Shown piece after piece: positions 388-16,600 of a stretch of DNA of 63,720 bases. The stretch is from Bacteroidales bacterium (GTDB lineage: Bacteria > Bacteroidota > Bacteroidia > Bacteroidales > WCHB1-69): assembly GCA_017964755.1 (NCBI GenBank), contig JAGCRI010000130.1:1-63720 (forward strand), given 5' to 3'. The translations under genes were made by a program, and so were the position numbers. Within the stretch, counting starts at the first letter, position 1, and each line of letters begins with the position of its first letter. The notes beneath the pieces are model-generated. The model ran no database searches. It had not been told where the DNA came from and saw nothing but the letters and a program-made list of their open reading frames with translations.

Positions 388-1129
388 TTATGACGACCCC
401 GCTGCCGGATTCGTGAATAGCATCATGTGTTGATTTGCCTTGCTTGTAATTGTTCACGGGAAAGAACGATAAATAACATCTATCAATACTTTGCTGCACA
501 ATTTCACAAAGCAATGTAGCACTATCTGAATAAGATGCGAGTTTATTCAGCATTCCTTTGAATTGATTAGCGTACAGAGGTTTATCCTTAATTTCAAGCC
601 GCATGTTTAAATAGGTGAATAATAATTTTTGCAATGCGGGAATATCTGTAAAACCATAAATCATGGCAGAACATTTTGTATATAGATTTGATTTTTTCTT
701 TTTGGGTTTACCGAGCTCAAAATTCTGTACTAATTCTTTAGAATTAGTTTTATTTTTACTTTCTTTTATATTTTTATTATATATATTATTAGGTAAAATT
801 TCTTTATCACCACCTGGTAAAATTTCTTTATCACCCGGGTAAAATTTTTTTACTACCTCGTTTGTTACTGCATAACTATCTGTATGAATATGATCTGTAC
901 TTTTCTCAACCGTGATATATTCAGACTCTAATAATTTTTTTAAGGCGTTATCAACTGTTGGTAACGTGATATTAAACGTATCTGCTATATATTTTCTTCC
1001 ACCAGAAAATCTTGATACGCCATCTTGTGAAAATCCGTTAATAAGTGCAAATATAAGTAATTCATTTCCACCCAGATTTAACTCGTTGCACATCCAGCCC
1101 TGAATGACTATAAAATTATTAGAATTCAT
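308..1129 (-). CDS. Replisome organizer / DnaD-like replication initiation protein
   Basis: 273-aa ORF with an N-terminal wHTH-like segment (GGNELLIFALINGF..RKYIADTFNITLPTVDNALKKL) and a DnaD-like C-terminal segment (FTDIPALQKLLFTYLNMRL). It lies directly upstream of the loader, DnaB and primase genes. Confidence 0.5.
   Translation of the reverse strand: MNSNNFIVIQGWMCNELNLGGNELLIFALINGFSQDGVSRFSGGRKYIADTFNITLPTVDNALKKLLESEYITVEKSTDHIHTDSYAVTNEVVKKFYPGDKEILPGGDKEILPNNIYNKNIKESKNKTNSKELVQNFELGKPKKKKSNLYTKCSAMIYGFTDIPALQKLLFTYLNMRLEIKDKPLYANQFKGMLNKLASYSDSATLLCEIVQQSIDRCYLSFFPVNNYKQGKSTHDAIHESGSGVVINDTKEDAEKREQFRAKMEAEGKKAVF
792..857. repeat. Tandem 24-nt direct repeats (candidate iterons) next to an AT-rich tract inside the organizer gene
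   Basis: ggtaaaatttctttatcacc occurs at 792-811 and 816-835, with a partial third copy ggtaaaattttttt from 838. A very AT-rich tract at 735-791 precedes it. The repeats encode GDKEILPGGDKEILP. Confidence 0.7.
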
Positions 1130-1533
1130 TATTTTTCCTCCTTAAATATGGAATGATAAACGGCGTGACAGTTTGGACAAATTTTTACAGTTTCTTTACC
1201 GCCCTTTGCTTTTGATATTGGAAAATGGTGTTCGTGTAGGACATAGCATTTTCGGCGGCACCATTCACAAGTTTTTCCTTTGTTTACTGTGTCTAACACA
1301 AATTGTTTTGCTTCTTGTGGCGTTTTAATAAACTCAATATATCCTTTATTTGCAAGTCTATTTTTTATTTTTAAAATTGTTGATCTTGAAAAATTTGCAC
1401 TCATTATTTCATCCGCTTTAATAGTATCTTTACCATACGCATTATATATCGCCAAGTAAAATCTATCGTTTAACGGAATTTCAAGCATCCAAATTTCTGC
1501 TGGAACATAAACACCTTCAAAATTCTTATTCAT
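1129..1533 (-). CDS. HNH (His-Me finger) endonuclease with an N-terminal wHTH-like domain
   Basis: The C-terminus reads CEWCRRKCYVLHEHHFPISKAKGG..ICPNCHAVYH (two CxxC pairs plus HNH histidines). It has its own promoter and a long leader upstream. Confidence 0.65.
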   Translation of the reverse strand: MNKNFEGVYVPAEIWMLEIPLNDRFYLAIYNAYGKDTIKADEIMSANFSRSTILKIKNRLANKGYIEFIKTPQEAKQFVLDTVNKGKTCEWCRRKCYVLHEHHFPISKAKGGKETVKICPNCHAVYHSIFKEEK

Positions 1534-2136: not shown

Positions 2137-2531
2137 GTTCTCACCTCCTTATTTTTCACGACTTTCAAAGTCGGAATTTCTTTAACAATAACGCAGGCTG
2201 AAAGTTCATCTTGCACTTCTTTTGGTAGTTCATCGTGATAAATTGCAGACTCAAGAGCATCCATATCCACATAAGGCTTTAATTTAACGATTTTCCCGTC
2301 AAATCCGCGTTTTTGCAGAATAGCAATAACTTTACCTTCGTCCATTGTTTCCCGGCGTTGTAGCGTAAATTTTGCGGTATAAGAGCCAGTATCAAACGAA
2401 TCAAGATTTTCGTCTTGCATAATCTGTTTGATTTCTTTTCCGCGATCATCAACATCTTTCTTTGCCGCTTCAAATCTTGATTTTACTTCTGCAAAAGCAT
2501 CAACCAACATTGTTAATTTATTTGTTTGCAT
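2133..2531 (-). CDS. Hypothetical protein, possibly of the Gp157-like family found in siphophage replication modules
   Basis: 132-aa ORF with RBS AAGGAGGA and a coiled-coil N-terminus. The family assignment is tentative. Confidence 0.45.
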   Translation of the reverse strand: MQTNKLTMLVDAFAEVKSRFEAAKKDVDDRGKEIKQIMQDENLDSFDTGSYTAKFTLQRRETMDEGKVIAILQKRGFDGKIVKLKPYVDMDALESAIYHDELPKEVQDELSACVIVKEIPTLKVVKNKEVRT

Positions 2532-2542
2532 TTTTTCCTCCT

Positions 2543-3628
2543 TTAACTTAATAGGAATTCAAGTAATTCTTCTTTATTCTTTGTGATAACACCATCAACA
2601 ATTGTATCTGCAAGCAATCCCTTGTTTTCAACGATTTGATGGATTCTTTCGTCAATGGTATCTTTACACATAATGGTGTAGATTGTGATGTTTTCATTCT
2701 GACTAATTCTGTGGCAGCGGTCAACACATTGTTCTTTCAGTGCCATATTCCACGGTTCATCCAGGAAGATTTCAACTGTTCCGGCGGTTAATGTCAGCCC
2801 CGTTCCCATTGCTCCAATCGTACCAATGATATATTTGCAATCAGGGTTATTTTGAAAATGATTCACATTAACTTGCCGCTCAACATCCGCTGTCTGCCCT
2901 GTAATAACCACTCCCTTATATTTTCGTTTTAACCTCGTCGCAATAATATCAGTCATCTGTGTCCAGTTGCTGAATATAACGACTTTTTTTCCGTTTCCGA
3001 CTACTTCATCAACCAGTTCCTCCATTCTGTCAAGTTTTGCGCTTTCAGCAACAGTTGAGGAAAGAATACCTGTATAGCCTGTTGCTTGACGCATTCTAAT
3101 TAACTCCGCAAGCGGATTATTAGCCATTTTGATTTGATCTATATTTGCTTTAATTGCTGCCGTTACTTCTTTGTAGATTTGTTCTTGCTTCGGCGTCATT
3201 TCGACAAATTCATTGATATACGTTTTCTCCGGCAAGTCAAGCACATCTTCTTTTCTTCTGCGCAGCATGATCTGATTTAACTGGTCTTGCAGTTCCGATA
3301 GATTCTTATATCCAGTTATTTCATAACCGCCGAAACCGCCAAAGACGCAGTAATGCTTTTTATATTGATAAAATGCGTGTCGTTCATAACCAAGCCATTT
3401 TAAAATGATAAACAAATCGAGCGGATTATTCATTAACGGTGTTCCGGTCATTGCAATCATTGTGTCTGCTTGCATTTTAAGAAACGCCTTGCCCTGCTGA
3501 CTTGTTGGATTTTTACAATTATGCACTAATACACCGTTTGCATAATAGTTGTGATTATCTTCCACCTCAATGTCATACGCAAAAATAGAAATATCATCTT
3601 CATATTCCTTGCTTATTAGCCTTGCCAT
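2543..3628 (-). CDS. SNF2-family helicase, C-terminal fragment: 37-aa C-intein followed by the C-extein (helicase C-terminal domain)
   Basis: Starts MARLISKEYEDDISIFAYDIEVEDNHNYYANGVLVHN|CKNPTSQQGKAF. HN followed by the +1 Cys (codon 3515-3517) matches intein blocks F/G. Downstream are SNF2 motifs (MTGTPLMNN, later GTGLTLTAG..DEPWN). The ORF-track GTG at 3640 is an alternative start. Confidence 0.85.
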   Translation of the reverse strand: MARLISKEYEDDISIFAYDIEVEDNHNYYANGVLVHNCKNPTSQQGKAFLKMQADTMIAMTGTPLMNNPLDLFIILKWLGYERHAFYQYKKHYCVFGGFGGYEITGYKNLSELQDQLNQIMLRRRKEDVLDLPEKTYINEFVEMTPKQEQIYKEVTAAIKANIDQIKMANNPLAELIRMRQATGYTGILSSTVAESAKLDRMEELVDEVVGNGKKVVIFSNWTQMTDIIATRLKRKYKGVVITGQTADVERQVNVNHFQNNPDCKYIIGTIGAMGTGLTLTAGTVEIFLDEPWNMALKEQCVDRCHRISQNENITIYTIMCKDTIDERIHQIVENKGLLADTIVDGVITKNKEELLEFLLS

Positions 3629-4374
3629 TTGTTTAACCACTCCTCAAGTTTTCCAGCATCAATATCATTGTGTGAAAACCGTACCACAGTGAACCCTAAA
3701 AATTTCAAACACTTATCCTTTTTAGCATCCAATTTCTTTTGTTCCGCACTTTCGTGTGTTTTTCCGTCAATTTCTACACACACTTTTGATTTTAAATTTA
3801 CAAAATCGGGCTTATAATTATCTGCGAAACGATCTTCCGGAAAAGCTCTTTTCGCAACTTTGGTTGGAATAGCAAAGTTATACACAAACCCAAGTTTTGT
3901 AAATTTATCAAAATATTTTTGTTCGTATTCAGATATTTTTCCGTTTCCGTATTTATAGTTATTTCTATAACTACCATTTTTTAATCGCGTTGAAACTGCT
4001 TTTTCAATAACTCCGTTCATGTGAACTGGATTATTTTCAGTCATTCTAATATAATTATTTTTTCTGAATTCGGCATCTTTCCATCTGTTTTTTAGCGCCT
4101 TTGACATTTTTTGTTTTGCTTCTTCGCTCATTTTATTCGATCCAAGGGCGCTATTTCTCCAAAGTGCCGAACAGCTTGTTGAACAAAATCTTTGTTTACT
4201 ACGCGATTCAACTTTAAATTCTTTTCCACACCATTCGCATTCTTTTGTCATTCGCTCTGCAAGTAAAACGCCTTTTCTATTCCTGTCTGCACATTGTTTT
4301 GAACAAAACTTTCTTTCCGGTCTTCCAGAAAATTCTTTTCCGCAAAACTGACATTTTTTAATCAATAAAATCAC
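3616..4374 (-). CDS. Free-standing homing endonuclease, Vsr/DUF559-like nuclease domain with two N-terminal zinc ribbons
   Basis: Duplicated zinc-ribbon motifs CQFCGKEF..FCSKQC and CEWCGKEF..FCSTSC. The C-terminus reads KPDFVNLKSKVCVEIDGKTHES..LGFTVVRFSHNDI (Vsr-like D..E.K). Start codon is GTG at 4374. The 3' end overlaps the C-intein start by 13-25 nt. Confidence 0.65.
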   Translation of the reverse strand: MILLIKKCQFCGKEFSGRPERKFCSKQCADRNRKGVLLAERMTKECEWCGKEFKVESRSKQRFCSTSCSALWRNSALGSNKMSEEAKQKMSKALKNRWKDAEFRKNNYIRMTENNPVHMNGVIEKAVSTRLKNGSYRNNYKYGNGKISEYEQKYFDKFTKLGFVYNFAIPTKVAKRAFPEDRFADNYKPDFVNLKSKVCVEIDGKTHESAEQKKLDAKKDKCLKFLGFTVVRFSHNDIDAGKLEEWLNKWQG

Positions 4375-4395
4375 CTACTCTTTATTTTATGTAAT

Positions 4396-4424
4396 ATTAT
4401 AACACATAAAATAAAGAAAGTCAA
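4396..4424 (-). promoter_or_regulatory. Sigma-A-type promoter serving the endonuclease gene
   Basis: The reverse complement reads TTGACT-17 nt-TATAAT, located between the N-fragment stop (4435) and the endonuclease start (4374). Confidence 0.65.
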
Positions 4425-4434
4425 GTGTTATACA

Positions 4435-5448
4435 CTAAAATTCTTCTATTTCATCGTTTTCAGTTAAATCTTTAGCACAAACCCATCCTCTATTCTTTGT
4501 ATAAAATTTATGCTCGTCTGTACACTTGACGGTTTTTATTCCTTCTTTTGTTTCTACTCTTAATATCAAAAATTTTTGCATTGTGGTATTTTCAAACATT
4601 CGTTTAATCGGTTTCCATTCGCGCTCTCCTGTCTGAATATTATAGCTTAATACGCTATCAATACAAATTTTCCCAGTTACAATATCGCCTATTTTCACTT
4701 CGCCTTTGTTTGTTACAACCAGTGTATCATAATCAAAGCATTTATGCACTTCATCAGCAACAATCATCTGAATCTTTTTTGCTTTGAACAACTCAACCAT
4801 TTTTGTTTGAATAGCCGTATCTCGAAGCGTTTCAATATTCGTGATTATAAAATAATGATTTAGTAAATCTAAATTATATAAATCCTCGAGCTTGTCTTTA
4901 TTTGAGCCAACTCTTGTTTTGCCGTTCCGCAATTTTCGTTGTCCAAGAATCCAAGCAGATTCATTCGAATGGGTATTTACTTCATTAACCCAGTTCCATT
5001 TCAACGAATTAACTCCGCAGATAATTAGACAATGTGTATATCCATTCTGCTGTTTCTTGGCAACGGCTATATCAACACTTTCTTTTGTTTTACCTAAACC
5101 CATTTCATCCGCAAGCAGAAACTTATCATATTTCATTCCATAATTAAAACATTCAAGTTGATGTTTATAAGGCTTCGTTTTGAAGGCAAAATTAGTAATT
5201 ATAGGCGTTTTGTCTTTTTCTAATATACTTTTATTATCAACGATTTCAAAACGAAATTCGGGCAGTTTTTGCTGTAATTCCGCGAGCTTATAAATAGGTA
5301 GCTCCCACTCTCGAGTCGAGGGCTCATAATATCTCTGCGGAAATTCTTTAATTGTCTGAATTATATGATAATCATATTGAAATGAAACGAAGATTGAACA
5401 TTCGCCATTGCACTTTTGCGATGGTCTTGTTTCAACTTTTATTGTCAT
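4435..5448 (-). CDS. SNF2-family helicase, N-terminal fragment: N-extein (4741..5448) followed by a 101-aa N-intein (4438..4740)
   Basis: Motif I is LADEMGLGKT and motif II is IVADEVHK. At Cys codon 4738-4740 the sequence switches to CFDYDTLVVTNKG..(block A)..KCTDEHKFYT (block B, TxxH) and then a stop. The N-intein length is similar to DnaE-type N-inteins. Confidence 0.85.
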   Translation of the reverse strand: MTIKVETRPSQKCNGECSIFVSFQYDYHIIQTIKEFPQRYYEPSTREWELPIYKLAELQQKLPEFRFEIVDNKSILEKDKTPIITNFAFKTKPYKHQLECFNYGMKYDKFLLADEMGLGKTKESVDIAVAKKQQNGYTHCLIICGVNSLKWNWVNEVNTHSNESAWILGQRKLRNGKTRVGSNKDKLEDLYNLDLLNHYFIITNIETLRDTAIQTKMVELFKAKKIQMIVADEVHKCFDYDTLVVTNKGEVKIGDIVTGKICIDSVLSYNIQTGEREWKPIKRMFENTTMQKFLILRVETKEGIKTVKCTDEHKFYTKNRGWVCAKDLTENDEIEEF

Positions 5449-5641
5449 TTACTTTCACAAATCCTTTTCGCTGTTTTAGAAATTCATCAACGGAATTCCA
5501 ACCCATTTCATAGATATTCATTTTTACTCGGGAAGTCATTGTTCCAGAAATCCAAGCTTCTGTAATATATTCTCCGGTATCGCTGTCAACAGTTGTTATT
5601 CTTCCAACAGCGCCAGTGCTCATCTGTCGTTTGTAAATCAT
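5432..5641 (-). CDS. Hypothetical protein
   Basis: 69-aa ORF with RBS GAGGTGGG, tightly packed with its neighbours. Confidence 0.45.
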   Translation of the reverse strand: MIYKRQMSTGAVGRITTVDSDTGEYITEAWISGTMTSRVKMNIYEMGWNSVDEFLKQRKGFVKVNDNKS

Positions 5642-5650
5642 AAGCCCACC

Positions 5651-5818
5651 TCAATACAAAATATTGCAATCTCTTTTTCTCGCAAGCCTTAATTTACATT
5701 TTCCAAGCTGTACATACACGAAACGCTTATTGAATTCAATAACCTTGAATTTTTCGCCTTGTTTAATAACTCCCCATCCCGGAATATTCATATCGTGTTT
5801 CAATTCAATTTTTCTCAC
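5651..5818 (-). CDS. Small hypothetical protein (55 aa, hand-called)
   Basis: GTG 5818 lies 7 nt after AAAGGGG. Translation: VRKIELKHDMNIPGWGVIKQGEKFKVIEFNKRFVYVQLGKCKLRLARKRDCNILY. The ORF is below the ORF-track length cutoff. Confidence 0.4.
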   Translation of the reverse strand: MRKIELKHDMNIPGWGVIKQGEKFKVIEFNKRFVYVQLGKCKLRLARKRDCNILY

Positions 5819-8929: not shown

Positions 8930-9292
8930 TTATTTTTCCTCCTTAGAAAATAACTCTTTGAGTTTTTCTTCAAGTTCTTTCTTTGTCACGAATTCAGAAG
9001 TGTCAATTTTAACTTCTTCCGATTTGCCTGTTTGTTCTGTATAATCAAATACACGCAAAGGCATTGGCATACCGCTCGGATCGCTTGACTTGATGTAGAA
9101 TTTATTGGATTCGCTATCCATCAACAATACATTTTTCCCGGGAGCGACTGCCCACGATTTTGCGCCAGCTTCTCCTTGTACCCACAAAATCCCACTTTCC
9201 TGCGGTTGTGTAAATTGCAGTTGCGGAACAGGTTGCTGCATTTGATTTTGATAATACCCATAATTCATAGGAAATCCATTATTATACGCCAT
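8930..9292 (-). CDS. Hypothetical protein (Q-rich N-terminus, beta-rich core)
   Basis: 120-aa ORF with RBS AAAGGAGAG. Confidence 0.5.
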   Translation of the reverse strand: MAYNNGFPMNYGYYQNQMQQPVPQLQFTQPQESGILWVQGEAGAKSWAVAPGKNVLLMDSESNKFYIKSSDPSGMPMPLRVFDYTEQTGKSEEVKIDTSEFVTKKELEEKLKELFSKEEK

Positions 9293-9295
9293 TGT

Positions 9296-9676
9296 TTATC
9301 TCTCCTTTTTCCAATAATAAATAGGAACTTCGTTTCCGCTGTCCCACGTGTCAAAATAATCTCCGTCTTGAACTGCTATGACATGAGTTCCAAGTGCTAA
9401 CAGATATTCTCCTATCGGATTATCTGTACAAAAGTCTTTCACGGTATAGCAGTCTGGACAAGTGTTTGGAATGATATAACGGTTAAAGCCTTTTGAATGT
9501 AGATAATTGCTCCACACCGCATTTGAGGACGGCATATCTTTCATTGCGAAAGCACAAACGGTTATATCACAAAATGTCGTGTCCCAATCTTGATCTGTCA
9601 CCTTTGAGACTGCGCGTATCACGCAATCGCCCACAAGATTTCTGTCTGGATTCGGATTGAAGAATCGAAACGCCAT
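9296..9676 (-). CDS. Hypothetical protein, possible papain-like Cys-His peptidase fold
   Basis: Start MAFRFFNPNP lies 6 nt after GAGGTG. Motifs GDCVIRAVS ... GTHVIAVQDGDYFDTWDSG. The fold call is tentative. Confidence 0.4.
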   Translation of the reverse strand: MAFRFFNPNPDRNLVGDCVIRAVSKVTDQDWDTTFCDITVCAFAMKDMPSSNAVWSNYLHSKGFNRYIIPNTCPDCYTVKDFCTDNPIGEYLLALGTHVIAVQDGDYFDTWDSGNEVPIYYWKKER

Positions 9677-9811
9677 AAGCATCACCTCGCAATAGATCAA
9701 AAAAAGCAATGACCGCAGAACATTTTTCTGTCTCAAGCATCTGGTTGAGATCATAACTAATGTCCTTCATGTCATCGCCTTCCTTGTTTTTCTCTATACT
9801 TATATTATATA

Positions 9812-9842
9812 GAAAAAAGGGACTCCAAAACTTTGGAATCCC
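9812..9842 (-). terminator. Rho-independent terminator after the sigma-like regulator gene
   Basis: Minus-strand hairpin GGGAUUCCAAA-GUUU-UGGAGUCCC followed by UUUUUUC. Confidence 0.7.
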
Positions 9843-9873
9843 TTTAAGAAAACTTTTGATTAACTTATAGTAG

Positions 9874-10083
9874 TCAAATCACACGCATGATTTTAGATTT
9901 TACTTTTCTTGCTAATGTATCAACTTTGCTAAGTGATACATTTAACTCCATAGATATTTGTACATTTGATTTGTCTTTTGCTCTCATTTCAAAATATACT
10001 CGTTCATCGTCTGTAAAATTGCATAATTCTCTAAACACATCCAATTCTGGTTTCGTAAAATCACAATATTTTATCTGCTTCAT
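9874..10083 (-). CDS. Small sigma-70 region-4-like / LuxR-type HTH transcription regulator
   Basis: FTDDERVYFEMRAKDKSNVQISMELNVSLSKVDTLARKVKSKI fits the region 4.2 HTH pattern. RBS GGAGGA. Confidence 0.5.
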   Translation of the reverse strand: MKQIKYCDFTKPELDVFRELCNFTDDERVYFEMRAKDKSNVQISMELNVSLSKVDTLARKVKSKIMRVI

Positions 10084-13682: not shown

Positions 13683-16600
13683 TTATGCGTATGCTTTTCC
13701 AGTCTGTTTATATCGCTTGTCGGATTCGCTCCAAACAACTTTTGCAATTTGTTTTCCATCAAGCTGTAAAATAATTGGAGCATTCGTACCAGACATACGA
13801 TTTAAAACATTTTGAAGTGCTTGCTCGATTGTAGACAACGGAGCTTCCACATTTGTTCCGGACCGCTGATCTCCAAGCATCGCTAAAAACTGCCTATTTG
13901 GCGGAATAACGCTTCCTTTAGCAAGATGTGGAATTTTAACCTGCCCAAGTTGTTGATTTCTGATTGCGGTTGTTTGAACTCTTGTTAATGCGTTTTGACG
14001 ACGAAGTAAAATGCTTTGTTCTCTATTCGCCGAATAAACCGCTCTCGCAATACCTGCGATAATCTGTCTATTGTTAACGACTGCTGTTTTACTTCCAATA
14101 GTACCAATTAACTCTGGGCCAGCTTCTCTTGCAAGTATCAATTGACCCGTGTTGAAAAGTCCGCCACTTGCCGCAACTGCGGCCGTATAGTTTGTTTTTA
14201 CCTGTCCGGATGAATACGTTGCAACGGTTGCAAGCTGTTGCTGGGCGGGTTTTGTAAAGTTAATTTTATCAACTTCCATTTCCCCTTGAACTTTTAAAGA
14301 TTTTGTTGCCCATTTGTCTTTAATTGCTTGCCACCAGTCTTTTATATCCTGCTTTGTAGTTGTTTGTTTTGCTCCTACCCCAAGTCTTTTTTTGTCGCCC
14401 CACCATTTTTGGACTTTATCAGTCCACCAAGCTGAAACTCCTTTTTGCGTTGCGCCAAATGCCGCTCCAACATTAAACTTTCTATTGTCTTTGGATTCGC
14501 CGCCGTTACCGCCATTAAACCAGTCTTTAGTTTTTGTCCACCAACCAGATACAGTGCTCTTTGCGGCTTCAAAAGTACCACCGATTGAAAAACTTCTATC
14601 TGTGTTTTCATCTCCACCATTGAACCACTTTTTGGTTTTTGACCACCAACCAGAGACGGTTTCTTTAGCTGTATCGTAGCTTGCTTTCAAAGAAACGGTT
14701 TTGTCTTTTATTGCATCCCAACCTTTTTGTACTTCGCTGAAAGCGTTGTCTTTTGTCTGCTCTACTTTCGTTGTCAGGGTTGCAACCTTATCTTTGATTG
14801 CGTCCCAACCACTCTTAACTTTGTCGAATGTTCCTGTTGTGGCTTCTTTGATTCCGGTTGTAATCGTGGCTGTTTTATCCTTAATTACGTCCCAGCCGCT
14901 CTTTATTTTATCAAAAATGCCTGTTGCAGTTTCTTTTACATTGGTTGTAAGAGTTGCCGTTCTATCTTTAATAGACTCCCAGCCGCTTTTTATTTTGTCG
15001 AATGCTCCAGATGCAGTTTCTTTGATTCCAGTAGTAAGCGTAGCTGTTTTATCTTTGATAATCTCCCAGCCGCTTTTAACTTTGTCGAATATAGCAGAGG
15101 CCCCTTCTTTAGCATAAGCAGTCAGTGTAGCTGTTTTATCCTTTACAAACTCCCAGCCAGATTTCAGCTTTTCAATACCAACTCCTATACCGTTTTTAAC
15201 ACCGTCGATCACGTTTGCTACAAGCTGAACGGTTTTATCTTTTATGGAATCCCAAGCATTTTTAATCGTTTGAATTGCTCCAGCTGTCTTTTCCTTCGCT
15301 TCTGCTAAAAGTGTAGCTGTTTTGTCTTTAACAATTTCCCAACCGTCTTTCAGCTTTTGAATCGCGCCGGTAACTTTTTCTTTTGCCTCCGCTGTGAGCG
15401 TTGATACCTTGTCCTTAATTCCGTTCCAAGCTTCTCTCGCTCTGTCGAATGTTTCGTCGATTTTACCCTTGATAGTGGCTGTAATATTGCCGATTCCGTC
15501 CTTGAATCCATTCCAAGCGTCTATTAAATCCTGCTTTTTATCGCTAAACCAAGATTTGATTCCGTTAAGCAAATCTGTAAATTTACCTTTTACAGCTTCC
15601 CAAAGGTTACCGAGGCCTTGCTTGAGGCCGTCAAGCAAATAACCGCCCATTTCAGCCATGACGGTTGACGGTGAGTGAATACCGAAAGCGTCTTTGAAAC
15701 CTTGAATAAACGGGTCGAAAATGTTCTCCTTAATCCACTTTCCGATATTCTTGATTCCGTTCCAGATGCCTTGGAAAATACCTTCCCAAATGGAAATACC
15801 AGCTTCATCCCACTCTGATTTTTTATCTTCAAACCAATCTTTAATTTTTCCTATTAAGTTAATTACAAAATTTCCAATATCTACACCGACATTAAATGGG
15901 GCCGTGAGCAGTTTTGAAACAAGCGCACCAAGAAGTTCAGATAATTTAGAAACTAATCCACTCCAATTTATACTTCCAACGAAGCCGAGAATTGAACCGA
16001 CAAGGGTGCTTAAAAAATCTGCAAAGTCAAATTCCTTTACAAGACCAATAACTATATCAAGAGCTGAAGTCAGTGCGGTTGAAAGCAAACTTCCTGCTGA
16101 TTTGAAAATAGCTTTCCAATCAATCCCAAGAATTAAATCAACAACATCTTTACCAAGTTTTTGAAAATCCACCCCATCAAGAAATGATGTTACAGTATTT
16201 AAAGCACCCGCAATTCCTTTACCAATTGTTTCACCAACATTTGACCAATCAACATTTAAGAATCCATTAACAATTTCTGAAAGATCATATCCAATATCAG
16301 ACCAGCGCGTTTCATCAAATAGTGATTCTATTGACTGAATAATACCATCAATGCTTAATGTAATATTTTCACGGATGGTTTTCCAATTAATTCCGCTGAA
16401 CCAACTGTTAATAACCTGAGCTATCTTCGTTCCAGCAGTAGACCATGTGCCATTTTCCTTAAATTGTTGTAAAAAGCCGTTCAACGATTGATTTATAGAT
16501 TCAATAGGGGCAGCTAAAGCTGTTCCAATTTTTTCCCCGTCAATTCCACTTATCAAGGTATCAAATCCGGTTGCAAGCGTTGAACCCATTTCCGTCCAAT

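Follow-up and report, generated by a model that had tools for sequence, protein, structure and literature searches.

The stretch of DNA analysed here, called the window throughout, is the whole 63,720-nucleotide (nt) contig JAGCRI010000130.1 of assembly GCA_017964755.1, deposited within a metagenome-assembled genome (MAG) named 'Bacteroidales bacterium', and it contains a gene for an SNF2 helicase that is broken in two. Judging from its sequence, this locus is very probably a fractured gene, in which a mobile insert located right after helicase motif II (DExHK|C) carries the two halves of a mini-intein, placed around a gene for a Vsr-like homing endonuclease with its own promoter. All genes in this region of the window lie on the minus strand, and the features of the locus are the following (IntN and IntC, N- and C-terminal intein halves; aa, amino acids; ORF, open reading frame):

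4741..5448, minus strand: N-extein, residues 1-236 of the SNF2 protein, with a HARP-like N-terminus, motif I (DEMGLGKT) and motif II (ADEVHK).
4435..4740, minus strand: IntN, 101 aa plus a TAG stop (4437..4435), with the Cys1 codon at 4740-4738 and block B reading CTDEHKF.
4396..4424, minus strand: predicted promoter TTGACT-17-TATAAT with TGn before the -10 element; -35 at 4424..4419, -10 at 4401..4396.
4378..4418, minus strand: inverted repeat, predicted RNA hairpin; 5' arm 4418..4403, loop 4402..4394, 3' arm 4393..4378.
3616..4365, minus strand: predicted free-standing homing-endonuclease gene, 249 aa if read from TTG 4365 and 252 aa from GTG 4374.
3616..3628, minus strand: 13-nt overlap of the endonuclease and IntC ORFs, from the ORF coordinates.
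3518..3628, minus strand: IntC, 37 aa (MARLISKEYEDDISIFAYDIEVEDNHNYYANGVLVHN), with blocks F and G and the terminal His-Asn.
2543..3517, minus strand: C-extein, 324 aa plus a stop, with Cys+1 at 3517..3515, running from KNPTSQQ through Helicase_C.
3518..4740, minus strand: the whole mobile insert, 1223 nt, made up of IntN, the gap with promoter and hairpin, the endonuclease gene and IntC.

The N-fragment ORF (5448..4435) encodes 337 aa, consisting of the 236-aa N-terminal half of the SNF2 protein followed by 101 aa that begin at Cys237 (CFDYDTLVV...KCTDEHKF...DEIEEF). The C-fragment, read from ATG 3628 to position 2543, encodes 361 aa, in which the 37 residues of IntC are followed by Cys+1 and KNPTSQQGKA. 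A preliminary description of this DNA had given the coordinates of the three ORFs, the helicase motifs and the Cys codon at which the N-fragment switches from helicase to intein (4738-4740), and all of these proved exact to the codon. The Pfam domain SNF2-rel_dom (PF00176) is matched in the N-fragment (E=8e-11) over profile positions 8-136 and resumes at profile position 135 in the C-fragment (135-264), where it is followed by Helicase_C (PF00271), and the predicted spliced product has 236+324 = 560 aa. The C-fragment is preceded by a Shine-Dalgarno sequence, GAGGAG (3645..3640), that lies inside the endonuclease gene. GTG 3640 was also considered as its start codon, and ATG 3628 was preferred, since about 20 homologues begin with MAKLISK at the equivalent ATG. 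Homologues of the host protein include the helicases of phages phiCTP1, Dp-1 and MS1, and a tblastn match to Streptococcus phage MS1 (residues 35-296) that seemingly reaches into the intein was not taken as evidence of an intein there, given that MS1 gp64 is an ordinary 566-aa helicase.

The intein blocks that had been noticed in the 101-aa and 37-aa parts were borne out by profile searches, in which both halves passed the curated NCBIfam cut-offs (24.5 bits for TIGR01445, intein_Nterm, and 15.6 bits for TIGR01443, intein_Cterm). TIGR01445 matched residues 237-317 of the N-fragment with 41.2 bits over the full profile (1-83), and TIGR01443 matched residues 17-38 of the C-fragment with 39.8 bits. 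When IntN and IntC were fused and compared with solved inteins, the closest relative was NrdJ-1 (8ubs, E=4e-18), followed by the Spl DnaX mini-intein (5e-13) and gp41-1 (6e-5); NrdJ-1 and gp41-1 are split inteins from the fractured genes described by Dassa, London, Stoddard, Schueler-Furman and Pietrokovski in 2009 (NAR 37:2560; PMC2677866). Cys237, Thr310 and His313 do not vary among 34 split homologues, and the end of IntC reads ...VLVHN followed by Cys, the junction HN|C being kept in 21 of 22 lineages and replaced by SN|C in one. By sequence, then, the element is a canonical class-1 intein of the HINT superfamily.

This intein can be regarded as naturally split, a stable genetic state rather than an artefact, since the same layout recurs on independent contigs, stop codons occupy the gap and the C-fragment changes frame. 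The three-ORF layout with the exact N-fragment protein was found on at least ten contigs from several samples. The gap between IntN and the endonuclease gene measures 60 nt and holds three in-frame stops (TAG, TAA and TAG, the stop of IntN included), and the C-fragment is read in a frame different from that of the N-fragment and the endonuclease, as expected of the separate intein halves proposed earlier. It might be argued that the locus is instead a conventional contiguous intein with an embedded endonuclease, made to look split by a sequencing, assembly or frameshift error, given that IntN and the endonuclease ORF share a reading frame and that in a distant locus (L118, see below) IntN is truly fused in frame to an endonuclease. 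However, the short gap contains a promoter and a ribosome-binding site besides its three stops, IntC uses a different frame and begins within the 3' end of the endonuclease ORF, the identical sequence came from different samples and assemblers, and the same stops and layout are kept in about 20 lineages that share just 35-57% protein identity, so that this explanation is exceedingly improbable; an error merging the three ORFs, which had been raised as a possible objection, is excluded by the identical layout on so many contigs. At one further locus (L008:3635-4323) the N-fragment and the endonuclease are identical to those of the window and the C-fragment is called as two ORFs of 54 and 176 aa, which represents either a frameshift variant or an assembly error.

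Alleles without the insert were found in sister phages. Unsplit 560-aa homologues (P0002-P0012) are 92-93% identical in aa sequence to N-extein residues 1-236, and their residues 237-560 are 97-98% identical to the C-extein. The predicted spliced product aligns without gaps and with 95% identity to natural unsplit alleles of the same 560 aa (P0002-P0007), in accordance with the ligated helicase of roughly that size expected previously. These alleles lie on contigs of 40-62 kb with the same gene neighbours, from sister phages with about 87% DNA identity. When the window was aligned at the DNA level with one such sister (L002), identity of 85-88% extended up to position 4741 and resumed at 3514, with breaks at 4741/4740 and 3518/3514, and in L002 the two aligned blocks are separated only by the +1 codon, which means that the insert is exactly window 4740..3518, of 1223 nt. 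The empty-site sequence of L002 surrounds GATGAATGTCATAAAATGAAGAATCCAACAAG (~60 bp around GATGAATGTCATAAAATGAAGAATCCAACAAGTCAG). In more distant homologues, the +1 residue of 52 empty sites is Cys in 35 and Ala in 17, and it is Cys in all 30 occupied sites analysed. In homologous phages, the intein blocks are the same or the site is cleanly empty, which excludes the case, also considered at the outset, of two unrelated genes lacking intein blocks. A third allelic state was seen in an SNF2 homologue on a 272-kb IMG/VR contig of jumbo-phage size (L079:5769-6188), in which a contiguous mini-intein of about 140 aa, without endonuclease, occupies the same DExHK|C site.

Comparison of the split and unsplit alleles codon by codon gave 169 synonymous changes and 26 non-synonymous ones, a pattern that indicates purifying selection on both helicase halves and hence argues for a fractured gene that still gives a working helicase. 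This bears on the alternative that the intein is a decaying relic, the halves either forming a non-covalent complex without splicing or belonging to a dispensable helicase on its way to becoming a pseudogene. Such decay would fit the disrupted C-fragment ORF of L008 and the nearest empty alleles, which show that this phage lineage manages without the insert, and trans-splicing is itself a prediction. Nevertheless, besides the excess of synonymous changes, Cys1, the Thr and His of block B, the terminal His-Asn and Cys+1 are invariant or nearly so over dozens of clusters, and the closest solved relative, NrdJ-1, is a naturally split intein of the fractured-gene set, which makes a relic quite improbable.

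The product of the middle ORF has a C-terminal match to Pfam DUF559 (E=2e-11, 44.2 bits against a cut-off of 20.6) and appears to be composed of two FCS/YacG-like zinc fingers (CxxC...CxxxC), a helical NUMOD3-like linker, whose own NUMOD3 match is below the cut-off (E=0.013, 15.8 bits against 20.4), and a C-terminal DUF559/Vsr-like nuclease. The Vsr/DUF559-like core assigned to this protein in the preliminary description therefore stands, whereas the modules called 'two zinc ribbons' there are more aptly named FCS/YacG-like zinc fingers, the second alone being invariant in the family. TTG 4365 is favoured as the start codon (MIKKC..., as in homologues) over GTG 4374, which was also considered, on account of the N-termini of the homologues and the placement of the Shine-Dalgarno sequence AGGTGA. 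Residues C46, C49, C64, C68, P116, D190, E201, D203, H207, D216 and R232 are invariant in 49 family members; the four cysteines make up the second zinc finger, the first finger being confined to longer variants. The family profile matched the DUF559 structure 3hrl (E=4e-13) and the PvuRts1I nuclease domain (6e-3) in the PDB, as well as FCS (5e-4) and YacG (0.015) zinc fingers, and a PDB search with the single endonuclease sequence reached neither I-Bth0305I nor Vsr.

An AlphaFold2 model built from the family alignment (mean pLDDT 92.8) gave as its best specific Foldseek match the catalytic domain of I-Bth0305I (3r3p_B, probability 0.99, target-normalised TM 0.59), with E. coli Vsr (1vsr) at TM 0.40; the top-ranked match, a mitoribosomal protein, was discarded as spurious (TM 0.15-0.26). 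The EDxHD family is defined by catalytic residues derived from Vsr (Taylor et al. 2011, PMC3239194), and D196A/H213A are the substitutions in the 3R3P construct. The spacing of D190 and H207 in the protein encoded in the window, 17 residues, equals that of D196 and H213 in I-Bth0305I, an equivalence drawn from the spacing and not from superposition. Like I-Bth0305I, the modelled protein has a C-terminal Vsr-like nuclease fold, conserved acidic and His residues and a modular N-terminal DNA-binding region, whereas I-Bth0305I is encoded in an intron of a phage recA gene. We therefore assign the middle protein to the Vsr-like/DUF559 nucleases, probably acting in the manner of an EDxHD homing endonuclease; by sequence, it is at most a tentative member of the I-Bth0305I family in the strict sense.

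Since DUF559 proteins are widespread in bacteria, mostly with no known function, and GenBank names this one merely 'DUF559 domain-containing protein', it could be supposed that the middle ORF encodes an unrelated protein, for instance a repair or defence nuclease, that came to lie there by chance. We consider this very improbable, given that its homologues (184 clusters) are found solely between SNF2-type split-intein halves in every locus fetched, that the gene is gone together with the intein from the empty alleles, and that N-terminal DNA-binding modules joined to a C-terminal Vsr-like nuclease constitute the EDxHD architecture.

The regulatory signals of the insert are concentrated in the short gap before the endonuclease gene. 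The perfect TTGACT-17-TATAAT promoter reported earlier is present at 4424..4396, with 11 of 12 consensus matches plus an extended TG. When the whole window was scanned for strong sigma-70 sites, defined as at least 11 of 12 consensus matches, only 11 were detected on the coding strand, compared with 4 on the other strand and an expectation of about 1.7. Nine of the 11 coding-strand sites are intergenic, and most belong to the phage's own repeated promoter family. The promoter in the intein gap lies outside that family and is conserved among inserts instead: in 11 lineages with only about 50% protein identity, the same position is occupied by a -35 element (TTGACA, TTTACA or similar) and, after a 17-nt spacer, a -10 element (TATAAT, TATGAT, TATACT and others). 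The phage's own repeat, an intergenic sequence of about 50-90 nt, occurs in nine copies (plus-strand coordinates 1705, 5833, 6149, 24583, 39092, 40052, 45698, 52435 and 59937; families D1/D2/D5) and reads AAAAAACTATTGACTTTTTC...TATAAT on the minus strand. No intrinsic terminator was found between the N-fragment and the endonuclease gene; of the separate transcripts proposed earlier, the part that holds is thus an additional internal start at the predicted promoter.

The same region contains an inverted repeat, UCUUUAUUUUAUGU / ACAUAAAAUAAAGA, that would form a stem of 14-16 bp with the -10 element in its loop, the 5' arm coinciding with the promoter spacer and the 3' arm covering the predicted transcription start. 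The predicted RNA fold has a free energy of -23 kcal/mol (z=-2.6). In an alignment of 11 sequences, 94.8% of the cells are paired, compared with at most 58% when one partner is slid along the other, and one stem pair appears as A-U in four sequences, C-G in three and G-C in three, its covariation score exceeding those of all 500 shuffles; as the sample is small and the sequences are related, this covariation is moderate and not conclusive evidence. An outer helix in the window (CACUU/AGGUG) pairs with the Shine-Dalgarno sequence of the endonuclease (4376..4372), and in most lineages outer helices peculiar to the lineage reach the Shine-Dalgarno sequence or the start codon, such as UUGCAC/GUGCAA in L013 and UUUUAAC/GUUAAAA in L098. 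In all 10 lineages compared, positions -14 to +3 are predicted to be more accessible when the RNA starts at the internal promoter than when it is a read-through transcript. An Rfam scan of positions 2400-5700 gave no known RNA family at E<=1, which excludes a group I intron or a described riboregulator.

Several results weigh against an active fractured gene whose EDxHD-like endonuclease is controlled by this hairpin. A co-conversion tract was sought at the junction with the nearest empty allele and none was found, the divergence being even at about 13%, so that recent homing into this lineage is unsupported, and the +1 residue of the nearest empty alleles is Met rather than Cys. With respect to the endonuclease, the family profile matches I-Bth0305I (3r3p) weakly (E=0.1), the protein being closer to the generic DUF559 structure 3hrl, and Foldseek with the whole multi-domain model returned nothing at E<=0.001, its E-values being modest (0.02). 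As for the hairpin, in some lineages the Shine-Dalgarno sequence lies 5-10 nt past the core stem, and occlusion there would hang on the weaker outer helices; moreover, eight of the 14 core stem pairs never vary, and for this reason the repeat could also be a conserved palindromic binding site for a protein.

In that case the repeat around the -10 element would act as a DNA operator rather than as an RNA hairpin, bound either by the endonuclease, in autorepression, or by a phage regulator. The repeat has the -10 element at its centre and reaches from the spacer to about +10, which is a classic operator position, its invariant pairs fit recognition by a protein, and the endonuclease is predicted to bear DNA-binding zinc fingers. 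On the other hand, the strongly variable stem position stays complementary through AU, CG and GC, with G-U wobbles on the sense strand only, and the lineage-specific outer helices, unrelated in sequence, extend the stem into the Shine-Dalgarno sequence or the start. In addition, of the 16 fractured-gene endonucleases examined by Dassa et al. (2009), 15 had a hairpin in the 5' untranslated region, which in ten cases enclosed a late-promoter element, and the Aeh1 work that they cite has, in their account, a late-promoter hairpin that sequesters the ribosome-binding site. An operator in place of the hairpin is therefore unlikely, while being the main rival for the regulatory element; the two readings are compatible and not mutually exclusive. 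For I-TevI in the td gene of T4, a promoter of the T4 late type reportedly lies within a hairpin that occludes the ribosome-binding site of the endonuclease, and the protein is also said to repress itself through operator binding.

If the locus is a fractured gene, the 337-aa and 361-aa polypeptides would associate through IntN (101 aa) and IntC (37 aa), and trans-splicing by way of Cys1, TxxH, the terminal His-Asn and Cys+1 would yield the 560-aa helicase. The endonuclease would bind DNA by its zinc fingers and helical linker and cut intein-less alleles in co-infecting phages near GATGAA..CATAAA|..AAGAATCC, and repair of the cut allele would then copy the whole insert into it, which amounts to homing. 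Read-through mRNA from phage promoters upstream of the N-fragment would fold the hairpin and occlude the ribosome-binding region of the endonuclease, whereas transcripts from the internal promoter, which lack the 5' arm since the -10 element sits in the loop, would leave the endonuclease translatable. The C-fragment would share a transcript with the endonuclease gene and would be translated by means of a Shine-Dalgarno sequence of its own. This combination of hairpin and promoter would follow the logic that Dassa et al. (2009) described, citing Aeh1, for gene-fracturing endonucleases.

A more speculative possibility, to which we give little credence, is that the insert has been co-opted as a timing device, in which the internal promoter sets the ratio of N- to C-fragment and hence, post-translationally, the amount of assembled SNF2 helicase. 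The internal promoter would drive both the endonuclease and the C-terminal half of the helicase, and the hairpin would block endonuclease translation on early read-through RNA. If true, an essential enzyme of the phage would be under natural control by a split intein, and the persistence of the module, split in 90 of the best 120 homologue clusters, would reflect a benefit and not homing alone.

The element is widely distributed. At least those 90 clusters, of the best 120 among about 2,400 homologues, are split N-fragments of 330-360 aa interrupted at the same site, and they end about 100 aa after the Cys that follows DExHK. The endonuclease has 184 homologue clusters, several of them on contigs with split N-fragments. 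Related loci were retrieved by an endonuclease-profile search of IMG/VR and JGI metagenomes, which gave 28 locus entries representing about 20 distinct sequences. In all 28 entries, as far as the contigs extend, IntN lies upstream of the endonuclease and/or IntC with the C-extein downstream of it. IntC in the roughly 20 lineages is always 37 aa long and begins with MAKLISK, and its ORF overlaps that of the endonuclease by 13-35 nt. Sample names point to an apparent origin in gut or rumen metagenomes.

Two variants of the arrangement were also observed. In L118 (2934-5407), a different DEAH-box helicase is interrupted at the equivalent position by the same intein, but here IntN forms a single 418-aa ORF with the DUF559 endonuclease, to which it is joined in frame, and IntC with the C-extein forms a separate, overlapping ORF; this locus could be an intermediate between free-standing and intein-embedded endonucleases. 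Four split N-fragments of 485-505 aa (P0054, P0094, P0095 and P0100) have the same intein in a different helicase architecture, with an additional N-terminal extension of about 150 aa, and a precomputed Pfam match to PF19474 lies in this extension in three of the four, P0054 being the exception.

The layout of a split mini-intein plus a free-standing gene for an endonuclease has been known since the work of Dassa et al. (2009), so that the novelty claimed for it in the preliminary description was overstated; what is new is the SNF2 host gene, the large family and the sigma-70 flavour of the promoter. Among the eight host gene types of that study SNF2 is absent, and the word 'SNF2' does not occur in the article. 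A Vsr-like endonuclease was present in half of the published loci, and the endonuclease and IntC overlapped by 6-69 bp. The SNF2 locus resembles them in that a phage gene of DNA metabolism is interrupted, the endonuclease lies between IntN and IntC on the same strand, the ORFs overlap and a hairpin encloses the promoter. It differs from them in its host gene and in its full sigma-70-type -35/-10 promoter, in place of the T4-type late element TATAAATA, in the FCS/YacG-like zinc fingers on its endonuclease, in its apparent gut or rumen source, in contrast to marine GOS reads, and in lying in a complete 63.6-kb genome for which sister genomes supply the empty allele. According to a 2025 preprint, the Vsr-like endonuclease is still reported solely from the setting of split inteins described by Dassa et al. 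(2009). In the literature that mentions 'split intein' together with SNF2, covered mostly at the level of titles and abstracts, no description of the SNF2 split-intein locus was found.

The view that fractured genes are known mainly from metagenomic fragments likewise proved overstated, given that the cultured T4-like Salmonella phage S16 (NC_020416.1, 104626-107352; L119) has a fractured uvsW. There, gp114 ends in IntN (...MMNDE|CFDGDTLIKT...VEWK*), gp115 starts with IntC (...NYFANGALAHN|CHLATGKS), and between them gp114.1, of 291 aa, has weak Pfam matches, below the cut-offs, to NUMOD3 and a TnsA-like nuclease; the GenBank annotations of the three are 'DNA helicase', 'hypothetical protein' and 'DNA helicase'. 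The same pattern of uvsW matches was also seen in several Salmonella phages and in Proteus phage PM2. As in the window, an SF2 helicase is split at motif II around a free-standing nuclease gene, which in S16 overlaps both neighbours, and the S16 IntN is 41.7% identical to that of the SNF2 locus. The two nevertheless differ in helicase (UvsW in S16), in insertion point (DE|CH in S16, DExHK|C in the window) and in nuclease (TnsA-like as opposed to DUF559-like), and S16 is a T4-like phage of Gram-negative hosts. The complete phage genome emphasized in the preliminary description is real, being a circular contig with phage genes, but it does not set the locus apart, since S16 and its relatives carry fractured uvsW likewise.

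Other known systems share single traits with the SNF2 locus. Contiguous SNF2/HepA inteins of bacteria, 15 of which were counted by Novikova et al. (2016, PMC4760082), occupy the same host superfamily and lie in a conserved motif region of the ATPase core; they are contiguous, cis-splicing and cellular, whereas the element described here is split and phage-borne. In the fractured nrdA of phage Aeh1, as presented by Dassa et al. (2009), the hairpin bearing the promoter of mobE sequesters the ribosome-binding site of this endonuclease, whose ORF overlaps the downstream fragment. Unlike the SNF2 locus, Aeh1 nrdA has, according to the same account, no intein, its fragments assemble non-covalently and the promoters are of the T4 late type.

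With regard to the genome as a whole, the ends of the window are an identical 141-nt repeat, which denotes a circular assembly and a complete phage contig, and genes for the portal, TerL, major capsid protein, tape measure protein and DNA polymerase are present, so that the window is a complete tailed-phage genome of about 63.6 kb. Neither the locus nor 24 kb of the window gave a megablast match among 50,697 phage records, meaning that the phage has no close cultured relative in that set. The canonical -35/-10 promoters, the strong GGAGG-type Shine-Dalgarno sequences and the nearest helicase relatives (those of Clostridium phage phiCTP1, Streptococcus phages Dp-1 and MS1, and Bacillus phages) suggest a host among the Firmicutes, and the Bacteroidales label of the contig is likely a binning error.

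Elsewhere in the window, the 1660-aa tape-measure gene contains tandem 87-nt (29-aa) repeats (14770-15470, families D3/D4), and a 134-aa ORF (1129..1533) shows an HNH-like pattern, CxxC...HH...CxxCH, without a Pfam or PHROG match. The intein-less sister L002 has an intergenic free-standing GIY-YIG/NUMOD3 gene of 255 aa (9155-10036) where the window has only about 33 nt (1753-1785). The difference in homing-endonuclease content between the two genomes is thus reciprocal.

The N-fragment, endonuclease and C-fragment are deposited in GenBank as MBP5710533.1, MBP5710532.1 and MBP5710531.1, annotated as 'DEAD/DEAH box helicase family protein', 'DUF559 domain-containing protein' and 'hypothetical protein', which constitutes an annotation problem in a MAG labelled Bacteroidales. 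The dozens of natural 101/37-aa split-intein variants with Cys1 and Cys+1, related to NrdJ-1, are candidate orthogonal tools for protein ligation, and the locus also offers an uncharacterised zinc-finger/Vsr-like endonuclease with a defined predicted target. The element is not a curiosity, since it represents a large family that is common in metagenomic phages, and with it SNF2 helicases are added to the few genes known to be broken up by a split intein and a free-standing endonuclease. Three stages of the gene-breaking model of Dassa et al. (2009), the empty site, the contiguous mini-intein (L079) and the fully fractured gene, are found at one site, and the fusion of IntN to the endonuclease (L118) is found in a different DEAH helicase. 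This allelic series makes the gene-breaking model directly testable by phylogenetics and crosses.

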